Shown here in pieces: positions 50,785-60,023 of a stretch of 64,000 bases of DNA (its first letter is position 1; each line of letters starts with the position of its first letter). The position numbers and the translations under genes were made by a program. The DNA is from an uncultured Planctomycetaceae bacterium (GTDB lineage Bacteria; Planctomycetota; Planctomycetia; Planctomycetales; Planctomycetaceae), in contig CAWFGE010000016.1 of assembly GCA_963815195.1 (NCBI GenBank), positions 32,001 to 96,000 on the forward strand, read 5' to 3'. The notes below the pieces were generated by a model. It had not been told where the DNA came from, did no database searches, and saw only the letters and a list, made by a program, of their open reading frames with translations.

Positions 50785-52050
50785 GGTTACACGGGCGGCT
50801 ATGATGCCGTGCGGCGGTTCGTGAATCGGCATCGGAAGAACCACGCCGAGACGTTCATCCCCTTGGATCATCGGCCCGGCCAGCGAATCGAAGCCGACTT
50901 TGGCGAGATTTCGGTGGACTTCCCCGACGGCCGCCGGAAGGTCAACGTGCTGATCCTGGTGTGGTCGTATTCCAACGCTCCGTTCGCGGTGGCGCTGCCG
51001 ACCCAGCGAACCGAAGCGATCTTGGAAGGCATGACGCAGGCGTTTGACTTTTTCGGCTGCGTGCCCGAAGAAGTCTGGTGGGACAATCCGACGACCGTGG
51101 CCACCGAGTTATTGACAGGGCGGTCGCGGAAGATCAATCCGCGTTACCAGGCGCTCGCCAGCCATTACGTGTTCGATCCGCTGTTCTGCATGCCCGCGCG
51201 GGGCAATGAAAAGCCGGTGGTGGAAAACCGCGTGAAGACGTTGGGAGCGGAAATGGTCCACGCCCGTGCCTCGCGTGAAGGACATGGAGGAGTTCAATGC
51301 GTATCTTCGCGAGTGTTGCTTGAAGGAACACGCTCGCTGCAGCAGCGGCCAGACGCAAACGATCGGGGAACGCTTCGCGGAGGAAAAACAGCGATCCGCT
51401 CCGCTTCCCGTGCCGCGGTTTGATCCCTGCATCCGGCAATCGGCGAAGGTCAACAAGTATCAGTTCGCGCGGTTCGACAATGTGAACTACAGCGTGCCTC
51501 GCCACGCCGCTTTTCAAACGGTGACGGTCAAGGGTTATGTGGATCGTGTCGAGATTGTGTTGAACGAAACCGTCGTCGCCGTCCACGAACGGAGCTATCA
51601 CGCGGGCGATGATGTGCTGGATCCTTTGCACTATTTGACCACATTAACGCGTCGCCCGGCGGCTTTGGATCATGCGAACGTGTATCGCGATTGGAAGCTG
51701 CCCGCCGTGTTCGGCGAACTCCGCGAGCGTTTGGAAAGGCGGCACGGTCCCCACGCGGGCGTGCGGCAATTCGTGCGGGTGCTGCAGTTGCTGGCCGAGC
51801 ATCCGCTCTCGCGCGTGCAGGCGGCGATCGAGCAACTTCGCGGCCCCGAAGGAGCCGATGCCGATCGCATCATTCGCCGCGTGGAAGCCTCCGCCCTCCG
51901 CCTGTCGGAAACATCGTCCGAGGGCATTTCCACTCCGATCGAGTGCGAACACCCCGGCGTGTTGTCGGTTCAAGTTCCCTGTCCGAGCTTGAGCCATTTT
52001 GACCAGTTCCTGTCCTCCTTCCAAGGAGATTCCGATTATGTCCCCGAACC
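50785..52050 (+). pseudogene. istA: IS21-family transposase IstA, 5'-truncated, frameshift near 51245
   Basis: GYTGGYDAVRRFV, PGQRIEADFG, FFGCVPEEVWWDN, GNEKPVVE, RFDNVNYSVP, LDPLHYL. Confidence 0.9.
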
Positions 52051-52396
52051 CGAAACACGATGCCAACCAGATGCTCCTCAAGGCCAACCTCAAGCAACTC
52101 CGGCTGCCGACAATCCTGGCCGAGTACGAGAAGTTGGCCCGCGAAGCGAGTGCCTCGAACCAGACCTTCGAGCAGTACCTGCTCCGGTTGACCGAACTGG
52201 AGGTCGCGGCCCGGCAGACCAATGCCTTGAACAGCCGGATCCGCAATGCGAACTTTCCGGTGGAGAAGGGACTGGAGGATTACGACTTCCAAGCGGTGCC
52301 CGGCCTCCACAAACAAACGATTTTGGAGTTGGCCCGCGGGGAGTGGATTGCCCAGCATTTCAATGTGTGTTTTCTTGGCCAACCGGGGACGGGAAA
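52038..52396 (+). pseudogene. istB: IS21 helper ATPase IstB, N-terminal part ending at Walker A (GQPGTGK)
   Basis: AAGGAG RBS, then LKQLRLPTI...ANFPVEKGLEDYDF...NVCFLGQPGTGK, then unrelated sequence. Confidence 0.92.
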
Positions 52397-52797
52397 GGTC
52401 CGACCATCACAAGACACCTCTGGTCACTCAGTTATCGCGCGGTGAGATCACCGTCACCGATCCGGCCCATCCGCTTTATGGCCGAACATTTGATTTGTTC
52501 GGCTTAGCCCGCCTGCCAGGTTATCGTCAGTATTATCAAGTCGAGATTTTTCCTGACGAGATGACCTACATCGACGTCAGCAGCACGAACCTTTCCACCG
52601 CTCCTCCCCAAAAAACTTCCTGTCTGACCCCGGACGCGCTCCAGGATTTGGTGACTACCTTTCGGGATATTCTTTCTCGGAGGGAAGCCGATGTCACCCA
52701 TTGCCACGGACCAGGTGTGGAACCGTCTGACTCTTCCAGAGCAGCAGCGGATCATCCAGCAAATCGTCGTCATTCTAACGGAGGAACTGGAGCATGA
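52397..52797 (+). CDS. Start-less accessory ORF (Y4bD/Y4pK, DUF5372-like) of element 1; completed on circularisation
   Basis: Open frame SDHHKTPLV...ITVTDPAHPLYGRTFDL. No ATG/GTG/TTG between the junction and this motif. Confidence 0.7.
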
Positions 52798-52975
52798 ACG
52801 GATCGATGAAAGTCAGCACCAGCCATTTGAATCGCCGCGGGATCGTATATCTTCGTCAGAGCACGACGAAGCAGGTCGAGAAAAACCAAGAGAGTGCCCA
52901 CAACCAGCGAGCCTTGAAAACCCGGTTGTTGGAGTTGGGGTGGAAGCCGGAACAAGTCAGCATCCTGGAGGATGA
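52691..52975 (+). CDS. Small hypothetical protein of element 1
   Basis: GGAGGG RBS, then MSPIATDQVWNRLTLPEQQRII. Positional equivalent of 55385..55573. The 3' end overlaps the recombinase. Confidence 0.55.
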   Translation: MSPIATDQVWNRLTLPEQQRIIQQIVVILTEELEHERIDESQHQPFESPRDRISSSEHDEAGREKPRECPQPASLENPVVGVGVEAGTSQHPGG

Positions 52976-54868
52976 TCAAGGGCAATCGGCCACGCAAACG
53001 GCGGGACGCGGGGCCTTTCAACAGATGGTCGCCGACGTCGGCTTGGGTAAGGTCGGCATCATTCTGGGCTATGAAGTTTCACGGCTTTCCCGCAACGATG
53101 TGGATTGGCATCGACTGTTGGAATTGTGTGCGATCTTTGACACACTCATCGGTGATGTGGATGGGTTGTATCATCCACGGGATTTCAACGACAGGCTCCT
53201 CTTAGGCTTGAAGGGCACGATGTCTTCGGCAGACTCCATAGCCTCCGATTGCGATTGGACGCGGGTCGATTGTCGAAGGCCGCGCGGGGCGAGTTGGTGC
53301 AAAACTTGCCGACGGGCTTGGTCCGCAATCTGGACAAGGCGGTAATGCTCGATCCCGATCTGAGCATTCAAAAGCGATTGCATTTGGTGTTCGACAAGTT
53401 CGTGGAGTTGGGCACGATTCAAAAAGTCTTGACGTTCCTGGCCAAGAAAAATTTGAAGATTCCCCGGCGCCAAGTTTCGGGCCTTTATGCGGGCGAAGTG
53501 TTTTGGAGAGAAGCCACGGCCGCTTCGTTGGGCTCGATCCTGCATAACCCGGCTTATGCAGGCGCGTTTGCTCATGGGCGTCGGCAAGTCAATCCCACGC
53601 TACGAATTCCCGGTCGTCCTGCCACGGGTCGCACGCGCCGGCCCCAAGCGGAATGGTCGGTCTTAATTCCCGGCATCTACCCGGCCTATATCAGTTGGGA
53701 GCAGTACGAAGACAACCAACGCCGAATCGCTCAAAACAACCTCCGCATCCAACAACGACTCGCCGCCAAGCAAGCCATCCGCAACGGCTGCGCGTTGTTA
53801 ACGGGCTTATTGCGCTGCGGAAAATGCGGTCGAACGATGGGAGTGAATTACAAGGAGAACCGCTTTCAATACTCATGCAATTCTGGCTATCGGCATTACG
53901 CCCAACGATCCTGCCAGTACTTGGGCGGCAACAAGATCGACGAGGCGGTGACGGAAGCTTTCTTTGAAGTGCTGCGGCCTGCCGAGATCGATGTGTTGGA
54001 GAAACTCTCCGCCGAAAGGGCTCGCACGCATGCGGACGTGGTTCGGCATTTGGAGCAAGACGTCGGGCGCTTGCAATACGCCGCCCATCGGGCCGAGCAA
54101 CAATACGACTGTGTCGATCCCAAGAACCGTTTGATTGCGGCCAGTCTGGAAGAGAAATGGGAATCGGCTTTGTTGGCGCAAAAGCAAGCCGAAGAAAACC
54201 TGGCGGATGCCCGCCGAGAAATTCCCCAACCGATCCGCGTACCGAAGTCCTTGCGAGACGCCTTCGCGGATGTCGGGCGGCAGCTTCCCGAACTCTGGCC
54301 CGAGTTGTCTTGGGAGGCGAAGAAGTCGTTGTTGCGGACGATGATTACGGGAGTCAATCTTCACCGGCAATCGGATGGGCTGGTGCAAATTCGCATGGTC
54401 TGGGCCGGCGGTTCGGTGACCGAAACGTCGGCTCTCCTACGGCGTTTTTCAATGAAACACACGGACTTGGAAGAGCACATCGTGGAACGCATCCGGCAAG
54501 AAACCAGCGAAGGCCGGTCGAGTGAAATGATCGCGGCGGATCTCAATCGCGAAGGCCATCATCCCTGTCGTGGCGAACAATTCACCTCGCAAATCGTGAA
54601 CAAGTTAAGACATCGCTACCGGATCAAAAGCCCGCGTGCAAAGAACCTGCCCCATGCCTGGACCGCCGCGGAAATGGCTCAGGAAATCGGGCGCAACATA
54701 TCCTGGATGTATCATAAAATTGAGCAAAGACAGATCGTGGTTTCTGTCGATCCAATTTATCGGTGCTATCTGTTTCCCAAAACTGAGGAGGTTAAAGACG
54801 CCATGCTAAAACTCAAAAATCACGAAACCGAGCAAATCACTATCCCAAGGGGGCACAACAATGGCTGA
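52794..54868 (+). CDS. Large serine recombinase; frameshift near 53235
   Basis: Catalytic IVYLRQS, EDDQGQS, EVSRLSRN, NDRLLLGLKGTMS, ILHNPAYAG, Zn-ribbon LRCGKCG, VDPKNRLIA. Confidence 0.92.
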
Positions 54869-54871
54869 GTC

Positions 54872-55063
54872 AAAACTCACTGCTGCCAGGCCGTGGGCCG
54901 CAGTGCGATCAAGGCGGGCTTCTCGGTGCTCTACCGTTCGATCTTCGATGTGGTCCGCGACTTCCTGCACGAGGCCGCGTTCGACGGCGATGACAAAACA
55001 TTGCAGCGTTACCTCAAGCCCGACCTGTTGATCGTCGACGACATGGGCATGAAGCAACTACCG
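54872..55063 (+). pseudogene. istB: IstB middle segment (Walker A end to Walker B)
   Basis: KTHCCQAVGRSAIKAGFSVLYRSIFDVVRDFL...YLKPDLLIVDDMGMKQLP. Confidence 0.88.
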
Positions 55064-55416
55064 CTACCCATCAACACAATGCTCATAAACCGTCCTCGGT
55101 AACGATCTGCTATCGTTTCCATGCTTTCTATGGCGAAGAGGTCCAGTTCGTTCGCACGTTTGGTGCGACCCATCATCTCGTGCGGTTGCCGGACGATGTG
55201 CAACTTGCCATTCCCTGTTGGATGCTTGATCCGATCGCCTGTGATCAGTGTCCCAATGCGGACCAGCCGCGGATCGCGATCGCGCCTTTGCTTGAGCTTC
55301 GCCAGCTTCTGAATCGTCAACCGTTGTTTCGCGCCGAGGATGGCTTTACGAATGGAGGAAACTCACTTTCTCCAGGAGATTCCGATGCCGCGAAGCAAAG
55401 CTCTTCCTCTCCCTAA
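55063..55416 (+). CDS. Start-less accessory ORF of element 2
   Basis: Open frame ATHQHNAHKPSSVTICYRFHAFYGEEV...LAIPCWMLDPIAC...PRIAIAPLLELRQLL. The first possible start (GTG 55180) lies after the YRFHAFYG motif. Confidence 0.65.
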   Translation, partial: ATHQHNAHKPSSVTICYRFHAFYGEEVQFVRTFGATHHLVRLPDDVQLAIPCWMLDPIACDQCPNADQPRIAIAPLLELRQLLNRQPLFRAEDGFTNGGNSLSPGDSDAAKQSSSSP

Positions 55417-55573
55417 ACAGCAGGTGTTTGCGTTTGCACGAGTTGATCTGTGGGACAAGCTCCCGCAGACCGTGCGTGATGAGTGCCAACGGCTCCTCGC
55501 AGAGCAGTTGAAACAATCCTTGCCATCCCCTTCTCAACAGGAGCACGTCGATGAACGAGAAGATTCGATCTGA
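55385..55573 (+). CDS. Small hypothetical protein of element 2
   Basis: CAGGAG RBS, then MPRSK...LWDKLPQTVRDECQRLLAEQL. Overlaps the recombinase start. Confidence 0.6.
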   Translation: MPRSKALPLPKQQVFAFARVDLWDKLPQTVRDECQRLLAEQLKQSLPSPSQQEHVDEREDSI

Positions 55574-56512
55574 GCACCGAGAGCGAACCGCGTTTGTTTA
55601 TGTCCGGCAATCCAGTAATCATCAGGTCCGAGAACATCTCGAGGGACAACAACGGCAATATGCTCTGGCGGATTATGCGAGGCAGCTCAAATTCCAAAAG
55701 GTCACGGTGATTGATGATGATCTCGGCCGCTCGGGCAGTGGACTTCAGGACCGCCCGGGATTCGCGAGGTTACTCACAGCCGTTTGCCAAGGCGAAGCGG
55801 GAGCCGTGCTGGCCCTGGAGGCTTCTCGGTTGGCGCGGAACAATCGGGACTGGCACCATTTGATTGATCTGTGTGCGCTGACCGAGACGTTGATCATCGA
55901 TGACGATGGCGTCTGGCGTCTACGATCCCCGGGAACTCAACGACCGGTTGCTGTTGGGACTGAAGGGGAGTTTGGCAGAATTCGAGCTGGGGTTATTTCG
56001 ACAACGGGCTCGGGCCGCGTTTGAACAGAAAGTTCGACGGGGTCACATCCTGTGGGAGCCCGTGGTGGGTTTCGTCAAGACGGACGATCATCGGGTGGAA
56101 ATGATCGCTGATCGGCAAGTCCAAGAAGCCTTGCGCGGCGTCTTTCGCAAGTTTCGCGAGCTGGGCAGCGCGCGGCAGACGGCACTCTGGTACGCTCAAG
56201 AGCAACTGTGGCTTCCCGAGGCCGTCCGCGGCACTTCGGGCTATGAAATTCAGTGGCACATTCCCGGCCGGCATCGCATTCTGCAAATCCTGAAAAACCC
56301 GTGTTATGCGGGAGCTTTCGCTTGGGGACGAACCGTCTCGCAACTGTGGTGGAAGATGGCCGGGCGAGGACGAAGGGGCGAAAAAAGCGGCCGCGTGAGG
56401 AATGGAAGGTCTTGATTTTGGATCACCATCCCGGGTACATCACCTGGAAAGAGTATTTGCAAAATCAAGAGATTCTGGAGTCGAATCGAAACATGCCCGA
56501 AGGAACCACACC
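55551..56512 (+). pseudogene. Large serine recombinase, frameshifted and 3'-truncated
   Basis: FVYVRQS, DDDLGRSG, EASRLARNNRDW, NDRLLLGLKG, LKNPCYAG, DHHPGYITW. A 7-bp duplication (TGGCGTC x2 at 55907-55920) shifts the frame. Confidence 0.88.
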
Positions 56513-58550
56513 CCGGTCCCGGCGTCGCTGATGCTGATCGCCGTTCCACCGCTGGTTAGGGACAACTGCAGAGTGTCGGCGCCTGCGTCGCGGGTGACAA
56601 TATAATAGTCGGTGTCGGCGGCGAGACCGGCGGGCAGCGTATCGGTGGACCGCACCTGCACGATCTGATCTTCCACGAAATCGCCGCCGGCCAGATTCAA
56701 GGTGTCGCCGCTGACGGTGAATGTGGACCGCATCCGCATGCCGTACAGAATCGATATGGTGCCCGCGTCGACGTAAAGCACGTCGCCCGTGTCCGGCACG
56801 CGGCCGCCCGTGAAATTCAGCGGGTCGTTGAAATGGTTGGGGCCGGCGCTGAAGGTGCTTGCTTCCAAGGTCAGCGTCTCCGTCCCTGCCGCGCCGATCA
56901 GATCGCTGCCATCCGCCACCAACAGGGCCAGGTTCTGTCCCGAGACCAGCGCGCCGTTAAACGTGACGACCCAGGGGCCAGTGCCAGTGACGGTCACACC
57001 ATCGATCCCGACCAAGGCCTCCAAGGCGGATTCCACGGTGGCGGCGTTGGCGTTGTACGCGATGCTCCCGGTCGGTTCGCCATCAAAGGACAGCTTAAAG
57101 CTGCCGCCAGTGACGCCCACGCCGAGCGTAATGGTCTGTTGCTCATCCACGCTGGCCGCTGCCGTGGTGACGGTGGTCACCGTGCCGCCGCCCCCGGTCA
57201 GGTTCGTGCCATCGCCCGTTAATTCCGGCACATTCTCCGCGCCGGGATCCTCGAACGTGATCACCCAGGGATCGGCCGCCGTGCCCGAGCCGGTGACGGA
57301 CACATCCAGGATGTTCGACAAGCCTTCCAGAGCGGTTTCGATCGTCGCAGCACTGGCGTTCCAGGCGATGCCCGACGTGGTCTGCCCGTCGAACGTCACA
57401 TCGAAAGTACCTCCCGTTGCGAAGATCCACAGCTGCTGGACTTCGTTGGCCCCGCCACTCAATCCTTCATATTGAATGACCTGCGAACTGCCCGAGCCGT
57501 TCGTCAGTTGGGAATCGTCCACGGAAAATGTATCCAGAATGGACGCTGTGGTGCTGGAGAATTTGATCGCGAACAATCCCGCTCGGCCATAGAAGGAGCC
57601 GTACAATTGCAGGTTCTGGGCCAGGGCATTCGCCAACAGGTCCAAATCGGTCAGCCCATAGTTGTAGCTGTAGTCCGCTGTTCCACCGTTGTAACTGAAG
57701 CCGATATAGCCTCCGTTCGCATCGTGGTAATCGACAATCACCACGCGCTGGTTGCTGACCCCGCCCGTGGCAATGACTTGCGGCACTTCGTTGAACGGCG
57801 TCGCGCCTCCGCCGCCCAGCGTGCCGATGTCGTAATCCAAGGCCTGGACGGACTGACCGGCCAGATCGCCGATGAACTCGATGAAATACACCCGCCGCCC
57901 GCCCAGGCTGGCCAACTGATATCCCGCATAGACGGCCACATTCCCCGCGCCGATGGAACTGATGCTTTCCAGGGCCGATTGCACTTCGGCGGCGGTCGCG
58001 TCGTAGTCGATGTTCGTGGAACTCTCGCCGTACAGGGACAACGTGTATTGCCCCTGGCTCGCGTCCAGCACGTAGTACTGGATTGTGTTGGAATACTCCG
58101 AGCCTTCGGTGATCGTGTCGATGACGACGTCGCCGTTGCCGGTCAGGTTGGTGCCGTCCAGCGACATGAGGTTCACGTCGGTTTCGGCATAGTTGCCTTT
58201 GAAGGTCACATACCACGGTCCGCCGGACTGCCCGGTGACCAGGAAATCGCCGGGAACCGGCGTCGCCAGGTTTTCAAGCGCAGTTTGCACGTCGGCGGGC
58301 GTGGCGTTGTAGGCGATGCCGGCAGTCGTTTCGGTGCCGCTGCCGGCGTCCCAGGAGATCGTGAACGTGCCGCCCGAATAGGTGCCGACCAGCTGCAGCT
58401 TCTGGACTTCGTTCCGCCCCGCGAATCCCGCCGTGGTCTCTTCCACGGTGACGTTCCCGCCCTCGGTGTTTGTGGTGGACGATGCGACCTCAAAGGGCAC
58501 GCCCGGCTTGCGAGCCGTGAGCGTGAGGTAATCGCCGAAGTCCTCGGCCA
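56512..58550 (-). pseudogene. Internal fragment of a phage structural/tail-like repeat protein
   Basis: Four repeats of the type NEVQ..GGTF..TT.GIAYNA..A.V..ALE.L..VTG..GPW.VTF, plus TLPAGLAADTDYYIV..LQLSLTSGGTAI. No native start or stop. Confidence 0.65.
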
Positions 58551-58938
58551 TTTCCAATCCGGCCAACGGAGCACGAAGGAAATGCAAACCGGGGAACCGC
58601 CCGAACCCGCGGCCGTGGCCCCACGTGTGCCGCGTGTGGCCAAGCTTATGGCCTTGGCAATAAGGTTCGAAGGCTTGATCCGCGACGGCGTCGTGGCCGA
58701 CTACGCGGAACTGGCGCGATTGGGGCACGTCTCGCGGGCCAGAATCACGCAGATCGGTAATCTTCTGAATTTGGCTCCGGACATCGAGGAGGCGATTCTG
58801 TTTCTGGAGCCGGTGGAAGAGGGAAAAGATCCGATTACCGAACGGGATCTGCGGCCGATTGTGGCTGTTGCGGATTGGAAAAAGCAGCGGCGGATGTGGC
58901 GCGGCTTGGTGGAAAGAACCCGCTTGATGAGGAATTGA
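58549..58938 (+). pseudogene. Recombinase-associated hypothetical protein (copy 1, 5'-truncated)
   Basis: RVPRVAKLMALAIRFEGLIRDGVVADYAELARLGHVSRARITQIGNLLNLAPDIEEAILFL, a type I recall from downstream of island/prophage serine recombinases. Confidence 0.7.
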
Positions 58939-59117
58939 GAGGAACTTTGCGAAACTAATGAAATTGCTTCTGGTCTGTCTTTCGTGGCCGCGATAAAATC
59001 GCTGTCTATCCAAAGGAGACAGATCATGAATGTTGAAATCGTGTGCCAACCCAGATGACCCCTCCCTGATCTGGGACGGCGTCACCACTTCACCGGAATC
59101 CATACTGAGAGTATTCG

Positions 59118-60023
59118 ATGTTTCGGCACATTTTTCTTTTGATCGCAATCGGCGTCCTGATTCCTGCGGAAAAAGAATCGATGGCCGAGGACGCCATCGA
59201 CTTCGTCGCCGTCACCGACTATTTGCAACTTCCCGAAAACGTCGCCCTCGGTCCATGTTCCGCCGTCGATTTCGACAGCAACGGCCGGCTGTATCTATTG
59301 CATCGGGGAAAGCGACCTATTCTTTGCTTTGATCAAAACGGAAAATTCCTGCGCTCGTGGGGTGACGACTTGATCGGCAAGGCCCACGGCTTGCGGATCG
59401 ACCCTGCGGACAATGTTTGGGTCACCGACATTGGCCATCATATGGTCGTCAAGTTCAGCCCAAAGGGAAAGCTGCTACTTGCCTTGGGACAATCTGGCAA
59501 ACCCGGCACGGGCGACGATCAATTCAATCAGCCAACCGATATTGCGTTCGGCCCCAAGGGGGAAGTTTACGTCTCCGATGGATACGGCAACAGCCGCGTC
59601 ATGAAGTTTGCCCCAAACGGAAGATTTCTGGCGAAGTGGGGCCGACCGGGCAAGGGAAAGGGAGAGTTTGACTTGCCCCACTCCATCGTTGTGGATCCCA
59701 AGGGCAGAGTTCTGGTTGGCGACCGCGAGAACGATCGCATTCAGATCTTCGACTCCGAAGGCACATTCCTGGAGAGTTGGCCCGGTTTTGCCCCGTATGG
59801 GATGGAACTTGGCGCAAAGGGAGCCCTGTTTGTGGCGGACGGCCGCGCGAACAAGATCTTGCAGCTTGATTCGGCCGGAACGACGATTGGCACGTGGGGT
59901 CGAAAAGGAAACGGTCTTGGCGAGTTCAATTTGCCTCACATGCTCGCCGCCGACAGCAAAGGGAATTTGTATGTCGCCGAAGTTGGCGGACAGCGTCTTC
60001 AAAAGCTGAGGCGCAAGGAATAA
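59118..60023 (+). CDS. NHL-repeat protein (PAL-like beta-propeller)
   Basis: AHGLRIDPADNVWVTD, FNQPTDIAF, VSDGYGNSRV, FDLPHSI, GDRENDRIQ. Confidence 0.92.
   Translation: MFRHIFLLIAIGVLIPAEKESMAEDAIDFVAVTDYLQLPENVALGPCSAVDFDSNGRLYLLHRGKRPILCFDQNGKFLRSWGDDLIGKAHGLRIDPADNVWVTDIGHHMVVKFSPKGKLLLALGQSGKPGTGDDQFNQPTDIAFGPKGEVYVSDGYGNSRVMKFAPNGRFLAKWGRPGKGKGEFDLPHSIVVDPKGRVLVGDRENDRIQIFDSEGTFLESWPGFAPYGMELGAKGALFVADGRANKILQLDSAGTTIGTWGRKGNGLGEFNLPHMLAADSKGNLYVAEVGGQRLQKLRRKE

Follow-up and report, generated by a model that had tools for sequence, protein, structure and literature searches.

That integration can alter the structure of an element's own genes is an established principle, and the described cases differ in what is altered. 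In Tn4451 and Tn4453, whose recombinase TnpX is a large serine recombinase (LSR), and in IS911, IS30 and IS21, promoters at the circle junction likewise make expression dependent on the joined ends. The portion of the ICEclc literature that deals with Pcirc describes a related effect, in which end joining raises expression of the recombination machinery in the free form, and this is thought to favour re-insertion (PMC5812530). The SSV-type "suicidal" tyrosine integrases of viruses and plasmids from archaea (SSV1, pTN3 and pT26-2) carry the attachment (att) site within their own gene, which is whole on the circle and split by integration, leaving a paradox of how excision starts; the passages of a review that discuss them call suicidal recombinases exclusive to archaea (PMC8371274). 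The integration-dependent immunity of mycobacteriophage BPs and related phages relies on an attP that lies inside a regulatory gene, so that integration changes the product (PMC4557955). Here we describe a 2.48-kb LSR element, called E1, at positions 52397-54873 of a 64,000-nucleotide stretch of DNA from an uncultured Planctomycetaceae bacterium (contig CAWFGE010000016.1; the whole stretch is referred to as the window). Joining the ends of E1 gives a start codon to ORF1, a small open reading frame that has none in the integrated element. ORF1 is probably a partner of the recombinase with a gene that is whole only on joined ends, its translation raising that of the recombinase by coupling and its start being removed by integration.

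Like the SSV-type elements, E1 has its attachment site inside one of its own genes, and it presents the same paradox of how excision begins. In the SSV-type elements the recombinase gene is cut in the middle, whereas in E1 it is a small, predicted accessory partner that is split, and only a ribosome-binding site (RBS) and four codons are removed from it. The bacterial serine recombinase frame itself is left unbroken by integration, because its stop codon (54866-68) precedes the crossover core by 4 nt, and in this respect E1 differs from the SSV type. In BPs, the 3' end of the repressor gene is reportedly removed, with stabilization of the protein, and the recombinase is said to be a tyrosine integrase; here, by contrast, the 5' end is removed together with the translation signals, which should switch ORF1 off. 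Joint-dependent promoters are placed or assembled by end joining, whereas the parts that are separated in E1 are a coding sequence and its translation start. E1 stands apart from these systems in that a bacterial serine-recombinase element is concerned, that a putative accessory partner is split, and that the loss is confined to the RBS and four codons. In a literature search that did not extend to most subscription journals, we found nothing in print on such a joined-end gene, on large serine recombinases in connection with IstB, or on DUF5372, the family to which ORF1 had been likened, and the literature on serine-recombinase circles and reconstituted starts yielded only host-gene reconstitution or unrelated work.

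E1, a compact integrative element of the IS kind with three genes (ORF1, the small ORF2 and the recombinase), is inserted, with all of its genes on the + strand, into istB of an IS21-type host element (istA from about 50809, istB from 52038). The insertion point is the AA of the Walker-A lysine codon (52395-97), which follows Gly-Gln-Pro-Gly-Thr-Gly, and the istB frame picks up again at 54874 with Thr-His. Joining of 52396 to 54874 in silico yields ...GQPGTGKTHCC..., rebuilding both the istB frame and the Walker A motif. The Pfam profile IstB_IS21 (PF01695) is continuous across this empty site: positions 2-106 match the 5' part of istB on the left (52038..52396, + strand, ending with the first two bases of the lysine codon; E 9.5e-20), and positions 112-167 match the middle part on the right (54874..55062, + strand), beyond which istB is cut a second time within the window. 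Because joining of the flanks restores the istB frame, and because the position is common to all nine copies of E1 in the genome, the crossover dinucleotide can be assigned to the AA at 52395..52396 on the left (the attL core) and 54872..54873 on the right (the attR core), both on the + strand. A 2-bp crossover without target duplication, with the target restored on joining, was found in silico for the window element and likewise for 35 relatives. The recombinase gene (52794..54868, + strand) has 691 codons in intact copies and encodes the Pfam domains Resolvase (PF00239, E 2.8e-14), Recombinase (PF07508, E 1.6e-17) and Zn_ribbon_recom (PF13408, E 3.3e-10), and residues Y19, R21, S23, C342, C345, C362 and C374 are invariant in 29 relatives. 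The gene is frameshifted in the window by the loss of one G after 53233; the extra G is present in other copies and in two metagenome contigs.

The body of ORF1 lies at the left end of E1 (52396..52797, + strand; stop at 52795-97) and consists of 133 codons and a stop, with no ATG, GTG or TTG between the element's left end and the VTDPxHPLYG motif. At the right end, a Shine-Dalgarno-like run, AAGGGGG (54847..54853, + strand), stands 7 nt before an ATG (54861..54863, + strand) that itself precedes the core by 11 nt. End joining makes this ATG the start of ORF1, four right-end codons and 133 left-end codons forming a single frame of 137 residues that contains no stop, and the crossover that restores istB in silico is the same one that restores ORF1. 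The original prediction, made from the sequence of the window, had described exactly this arrangement, a left-end frame without a start that is completed at the joint, and its coordinates proved exact (including TGA at 54866-68 as the recombinase stop). The same DNA also belongs to the attachment site. The first 34 nt of the element (52397..52430, + strand), recognized from the alignment and from the variation of codons 2-3, constitute the attP right arm and encode the first, unstructured residues of ORF1, and the AAGGGGG run is part of the attP left arm as well.

ORF1 is not confined to this genome. Its relatives include one 133-residue protein with 62% identity and occur in 8 of 397 other genomes of the same order, on a contig of a Chloroflexota metagenome-assembled genome, in other Planctomycetota, and in at least 521 metagenome stretches, from which 80 loci were fetched. 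Altogether 87 loci were scored for start codons, and both ends of the element are present in 39 of them. In these, the core was placed by requiring the flanks to restore the target gene, using geometry and a check of the target motif, and targets were confirmed by Pfam matches on the flanks; assignment of flanks by open frames, which is ambiguous in GC-rich DNA, and by the longest shared substring, which is unreliable, was dropped. Four loci were left out of the scripted comparison: L071, L088 and L110, in which the recombinase frame has only 510-587 residues and no right end was recognized, and L036, whose left joint lacks a TG dinucleotide and, by eye, has a CA two bases further on, in frame. 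The remaining 35, which include the near-duplicates L105/L107, L058/L059, L097/L104 and L090/L092, fall into seven groups (A to G) according to target.

Joining the ends of these relatives in silico placed an in-frame start codon exactly 11 nt before the core in all 35 loci, across all seven target groups. In each of them an ORF1-frame codon begins at the second base of the core, and no stop interrupts the joined frame. The start codon is ATG in 31 loci, TTG in two (one lineage), GTG in one and CTG in one, and the element with CTG has another in-frame ATG ten codons upstream. Restoration of the frame, for which the original prediction had set a chance level of one in three, was thus seen in every case, the cases being non-independent through their fixed att geometry. 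E2, a second element type with a different core offset, likewise gains an in-frame ATG from its right end, and it also has an internal ATG of its own. A purine/G run stands 7 nt upstream of the start throughout the 35 loci (conserved at -12..-10); the host 16S rRNA ends in CACCTCCTTTC, a canonical anti-Shine-Dalgarno sequence, and in a crude count the region upstream of host first ATGs is 2.7- to 3.8-fold enriched in AAGG, GGAG and AGGA. A scan of the + strand from 52200 to 55100 detected no sigma-70-like promoter, a weak test in that other promoter types and the joint itself lie outside the scan.

Variation among relatives indicates where ORF1 is read as protein. The DPxHPLxG motif is invariant in the family, and the frame is open in all nine genome copies, including those in which the recombinase is split. 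Among 15 group-A sequences, entropy at codon positions 1/2/3 is 0.53/0.48/1.27 in codons 10-17, which lie upstream of the motif, and 0.58/0.33/1.49 in the motif region, and Pro, Leu, Thr, Cys and Gly are preserved via synonymous codons. This third-position variation is of the kind typical of coding sequence. In codons 2-3 of the same group, position 3 is invariant and position 2 is variable, the pattern that a DNA-binding site would show, which suggests that this segment is constrained as such a site. Because the coding signal is present at codons 10-17, and because a strand is modelled from residue 10, translation must begin upstream of about codon 8, yet only one of the 15 sequences has a start codon within codons 1-7. 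In the integrated form, 43 of the 87 loci have no ATG, GTG or TTG anywhere from the upstream in-frame stop to the motif, and six more have none before the contig ends.

The two genes are closely juxtaposed on both sides. In the window, the ORF1 stop overlaps the recombinase ATG as ATGA (52794-97); the same overlap is present in 26 of 68 loci scored, and a stop, 3 nt and an ATG follow one another in 17 of the 68. Across the joint, all 35 loci place the recombinase stop between -13 and +8 nt from the joint start, and in the window element it is 3 nt past the ORF1 start. Of the translational coupling that the original prediction had proposed, the geometry of stops and starts is therefore present, and the coupling itself we infer from it: on joined ends, both genes would feed each other's start sites.

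The nine genome copies of E1 (seven complete, one that runs off its contig and a truncated one of 681 nt) are 99.5-100% identical. In every one the left junction comes directly after AA in a P-loop lysine codon, and three left-flank and four right-flank sequences can be distinguished. E1 is mobile and site-specific. Three of the eight long copies (C15, C18 and C12) have an unbroken 691-residue recombinase; the window copy and four others are split by frameshifts. The flanks are shuffled among the copies on C16, C15, C8, C7 (two copies), C18 and C12, such that one left flank is paired with three right flanks, and one right flank with two left flanks, suggesting recombination between copies, either homologous or by attL x attR of different copies. 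A script search of the genome assembly found no joined element ends, and exact 30-mers found no uninterrupted copies of the three istB site variants in it. The contigs of four metagenome runs, which cannot reveal rare forms, contain no circle-type or empty-site joint, and no metagenome contig has a terminal overlap or a captured joint; loose ends on these contigs lead only into other integrated contexts. A search of sequencing runs found 20 DNA metagenome runs that hold parts of the element and no RNA run that holds it.

The arrangement suggests how E1 might use its own ends. With attP situated within the 5' end of ORF1, such that the RBS, the ATG and three further codons are at the right end and 133 codons at the left, integration would strip ORF1 of its start and end joining would rebuild it. 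Joining would most simply be excision to a circle, and the joint of a head-to-tail tandem would complete ORF1 too. As the original prediction proposed, ORF1 may be made from the circle only. In the joined form, ORF1 and the recombinase would constitute a closed translational loop that is present in that state only, so that ORF1 would be made, and recombinase synthesis raised, only while the element is free; re-insertion would thereby be favoured, and integration would shut off both. By analogy with Pcirc of ICEclc, and with the junction promoters of Tn4451 and the insertion sequences, the free form may thus boost the machinery for its own re-insertion.

The alternative that survives best is that the G-run and ATG at the right end are recombinase-binding features of attP, that the frame across the joint is an inherited accident, and that ORF1 is translated in the integrated form from a non-canonical, internal or flank start. 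We consider this unlikely, but a number of observations favour it or weigh against circle-dependent synthesis of ORF1. The 35 loci share one att geometry, and since a fixed geometry forbids indels, the frame would be kept without selection and is largely inherited, so that the 35 cases do not count as separate events. Little or no variation is seen in the G-run, G(-8), A(-6) or the TG of the start codon, all of which are mirrored in the other arm, where there is a CA at +9,+10 and a C-run that encodes Thr-Pro; these bases are therefore recombinase-binding features too, and their conservation alone is no proof of translation. Plain GGGG is not enriched upstream of host genes (251 vs 251-275 in the control). 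Start codons are also available to some integrated elements. A possible ATG, GTG or TTG lies within 16 codons of the motif in 19 of the 87 loci, and in 19 others the only start is 17 or more codons upstream and belongs either to the flank or to the core codon. The close relative G761 has an ATG at the core-spanning codon, which is thus present when integrated too; in groups D and F the target sometimes gives an in-frame start at nearly the same place; and in the window an in-frame ATG is found 11 codons upstream, in the istB +1 frame. If ORF1 is a classical excision factor, moreover, there would be little point in producing it only once excision has taken place.

Other observations are difficult to reconcile with a purely recombinase-binding function of the right end. 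The 43 loci without a canonical start would have to translate ORF1 without one, and in group A the signal of coding sets in at about codon 8, before any of the internal candidates. The elements of groups B, C and E are antisense to their targets, and target translation therefore cannot feed ORF1 in them. In 31 of 35 loci the ATG retains its A, though the mirror position is mostly A and not T (the other arm has mostly CAA), and GTG and TTG are among the substitute codons. Recombinase coding cannot hold the ATG in place either, because it lies 1-13 nt after the recombinase stop in 15 of the 35 (those of groups C-G, plus L082 from group B), and E2 is in frame despite its different core offset. 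The start-codon A, the presence of the ATG beyond the recombinase stop and the need for a start speak for a translational role. The original prediction had named internal starts upstream of the motif in homologues as one observation that would overturn it: on this point it holds at the 43 loci that have no start at all, and is weakened by the 19 with a possible internal start and by E2 with its own ATG.

The product of ORF1 models as a small SH3-like barrel (residues about 10-60) with a helix. In the AlphaFold model (pLDDT 72.7), strands at 10-20, 31-40, 44-52 and 55-60 are followed by a helix at 79-102 and a disordered tail that overlaps ORF2, a further small frame of E1; residues 11-90 have pLDDT 81-94, whereas residues 1-3 are below 50 and the first ten average 51. 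The barrel is weakly similar to SH3, KOW and Tudor-like domains (best VIA Z 5.9, rmsd 3.7 over 60 residues), and a Foldseek search of the model against the PDB gave no match at E <= 0.001. The original prediction had called the protein DUF5372-like (PF17342). Weak matches to this family, over the barrel, do occur in 21 of 76 relatives, with a best E of 7.9e-4, but the two with a bit score given are below the cut-off (18.6, for L097 with E 0.002, and 12.5, against a Pfam gathering cut-off of 25), and ORF1 of the window does not match (E up to 1); the likeness holds below that cut-off only. Position 1 of the DUF5372 profile corresponds to ORF1 residue 20, at the start of the motif, and the profile has no N-terminal extension that would reach the element end.

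Co-folding of ORF1 with the intact recombinase, which the original prediction had put forward as a check, gave a predicted complex with a score of 0.73, whereas the best of three controls scored 0.01. The mark used is reached by 116 of 157 solved complexes and by 2 of 215 mismatched pairs, a calibration that is rough here since custom alignments were used. The runs agree in at least 79% of contacts, with a partner pLDDT of at least 61. On the recombinase, the predicted interface comprises residues 341-346 (the first zinc knuckle), 393-409 and 481-544; on ORF1, it takes in 23-30 (the DPxHPLYG motif), 51-57 and 72-92. The recombinase segments flank an insert of ~70 residues that presumably forms the coiled coil, as in the LSR family. 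ORF1 is thus predicted to bind the LSR zinc ribbon at the coiled coil's base, which is where directionality factors bind.

This predicted interface raises a second alternative, in which ORF1 is a classical directionality factor that is needed for excision and inhibits integration, with integrated copies supplying small amounts of it through read-through or chance starts, while the joined start serves another end such as supply in trans to integrated copies elsewhere. The phiC31 directionality factor gp3 has been placed at the hinge between the zinc domain and the coiled coil (PMC5814800), and ORF1, like gp3 and other directionality factors, is a small partner predicted to sit at that hinge. 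The genome also offers eight further copies that a trans-acting factor could mobilize, and in the window the istB +1 frame upstream of the joint has, besides the in-frame ATG, an in-frame TTG. However, synthesis from the circle alone would be counter-productive for such a protein, and this alternative therefore requires that ORF1 be supplied in some other way while the element is integrated, a state in which most loci offer no start; an element whose circle is the main source of an integration blocker would be left stranded. ORF1 differs from the known directionality factors, moreover, in having no sequence or family relation to them, in its SH3-like fold and in having its gene cut by attP. 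We regard this alternative as improbable. That ORF1 is a decaying pseudogene, or no gene at all and open by chance, is very improbable: although ORF1 of the window has no match in Pfam, PHROG or NCBIfam above threshold and the last 30 residues of the protein, which overlap ORF2, are disordered, the frame is open in every genome copy, the family exceeds 521 members with an invariant motif, the third-position variation is typical of coding, and a confidently modelled barrel and a complex model that passes its controls speak for a real protein.

ORF2 (52691..52975, + strand) overlaps the tail of ORF1 and the start of the recombinase gene and runs past the latter. Its first 38-46 residues are conserved in relatives, with 36-53% identity in L032, L033, L023 and L034, and the same three databases gave no family match above threshold. 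A directionality factor of the element may be either ORF2 or ORF1. At the left joint of E1, the insertion creates a GGGAAAG (52389-52398) that resembles a -1 slippery heptamer in the istB frame. A -1 frameshift at this heptamer was rejected as a route into ORF1, since it leads into the wrong frame, and it would in any case be applicable only to group A, which is co-oriented. An in-frame fusion of IstB to ORF1 was rejected as well: ORF1 is offset by +1 from istB, whose own frame reaches a stop after 16 codons of the element.

The second cut in istB is made by E2, of which the window holds a decayed, truncated copy (55061..56511, + strand) inserted after DDMGMKQLP; it is 84.5% identical to the intact copy on C21, over the first 1445 nt of the latter. 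Intact E2 is 2604 nt long. Copies of it are present in the same genome assembly (G000) at C21:188-2791, on C14, on C19 and at C18:29475-30453, and the intact copies begin C21, C14 and C19. Because these three contigs begin at the right flank of E1 and then run into E2, IS21 copies carry both elements. The window copy is truncated after 1445 nt and has ACG where intact copies have ATG as the start of the ORF1-like frame, and the copy on C21 has a TAG within the recombinase. An uninterrupted E2 site was found on a metagenome contig (run X2). Adjoining the truncated end of E2 in the window is a 902-codon frame on the minus strand (56440-59148) that is rich in Thr/Gly/Ser repeats and may mark a deletion or rearrangement at that end.

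The targets of the relatives are themselves largely genes of mobile elements. Group A inserts into the P-loop lysine codons of IstB or, in L058/L059, of a ParA/MinD-type ATPase. Groups B and C insert into a group II intron reverse transcriptase, which is always split at position 78/79 of the RVT_1 profile; group D into the DGVY region of another large serine recombinase gene; group E into an rve-type transposase; and group F into a DDE_Tnp_1_6 transposase, the target of group G being unknown. In three loci (L068, L090 and L091) the core dinucleotide is palindromic (TA or CG) and the flanks are inverted copies of the same target half, those of L091 being exact reverse complements of each other. 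Inverted flanks are expected in such cases if the recombinase can join sites both ways round at a symmetric core. The family appears to home into conserved, motif-coding DNA of other mobile elements, a hyperparasitic habit that provides a safe haven.

A broader proposal can be made for the family, to which we give somewhat less than even weight: that the direction of recombination is set by gene topology rather than by regulated transcription, the loop of the free state making a partner that would bind at the site used by directionality factors, driving re-insertion and thereby destroying its own start, and that the family lives as a hyperparasite. A factor encoded only in the free state would give a mobile element a very compact means of sensing its own state and responding to it, and would add a bacterial serine-recombinase case to the few systems known, namely the suicidal integrases of archaea, phage immunity that depends on integration, and joint-dependent promoters. 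Genome engineering makes wide use of serine integrases, whose direction is controlled by partner proteins; a new family of small partners predicted to bind at the hinge site, and recombinases that read conserved coding motifs, can both be tested directly. The habit of landing in the genes of other mobile elements, finally, bears on how mobile DNA finds safe sites.

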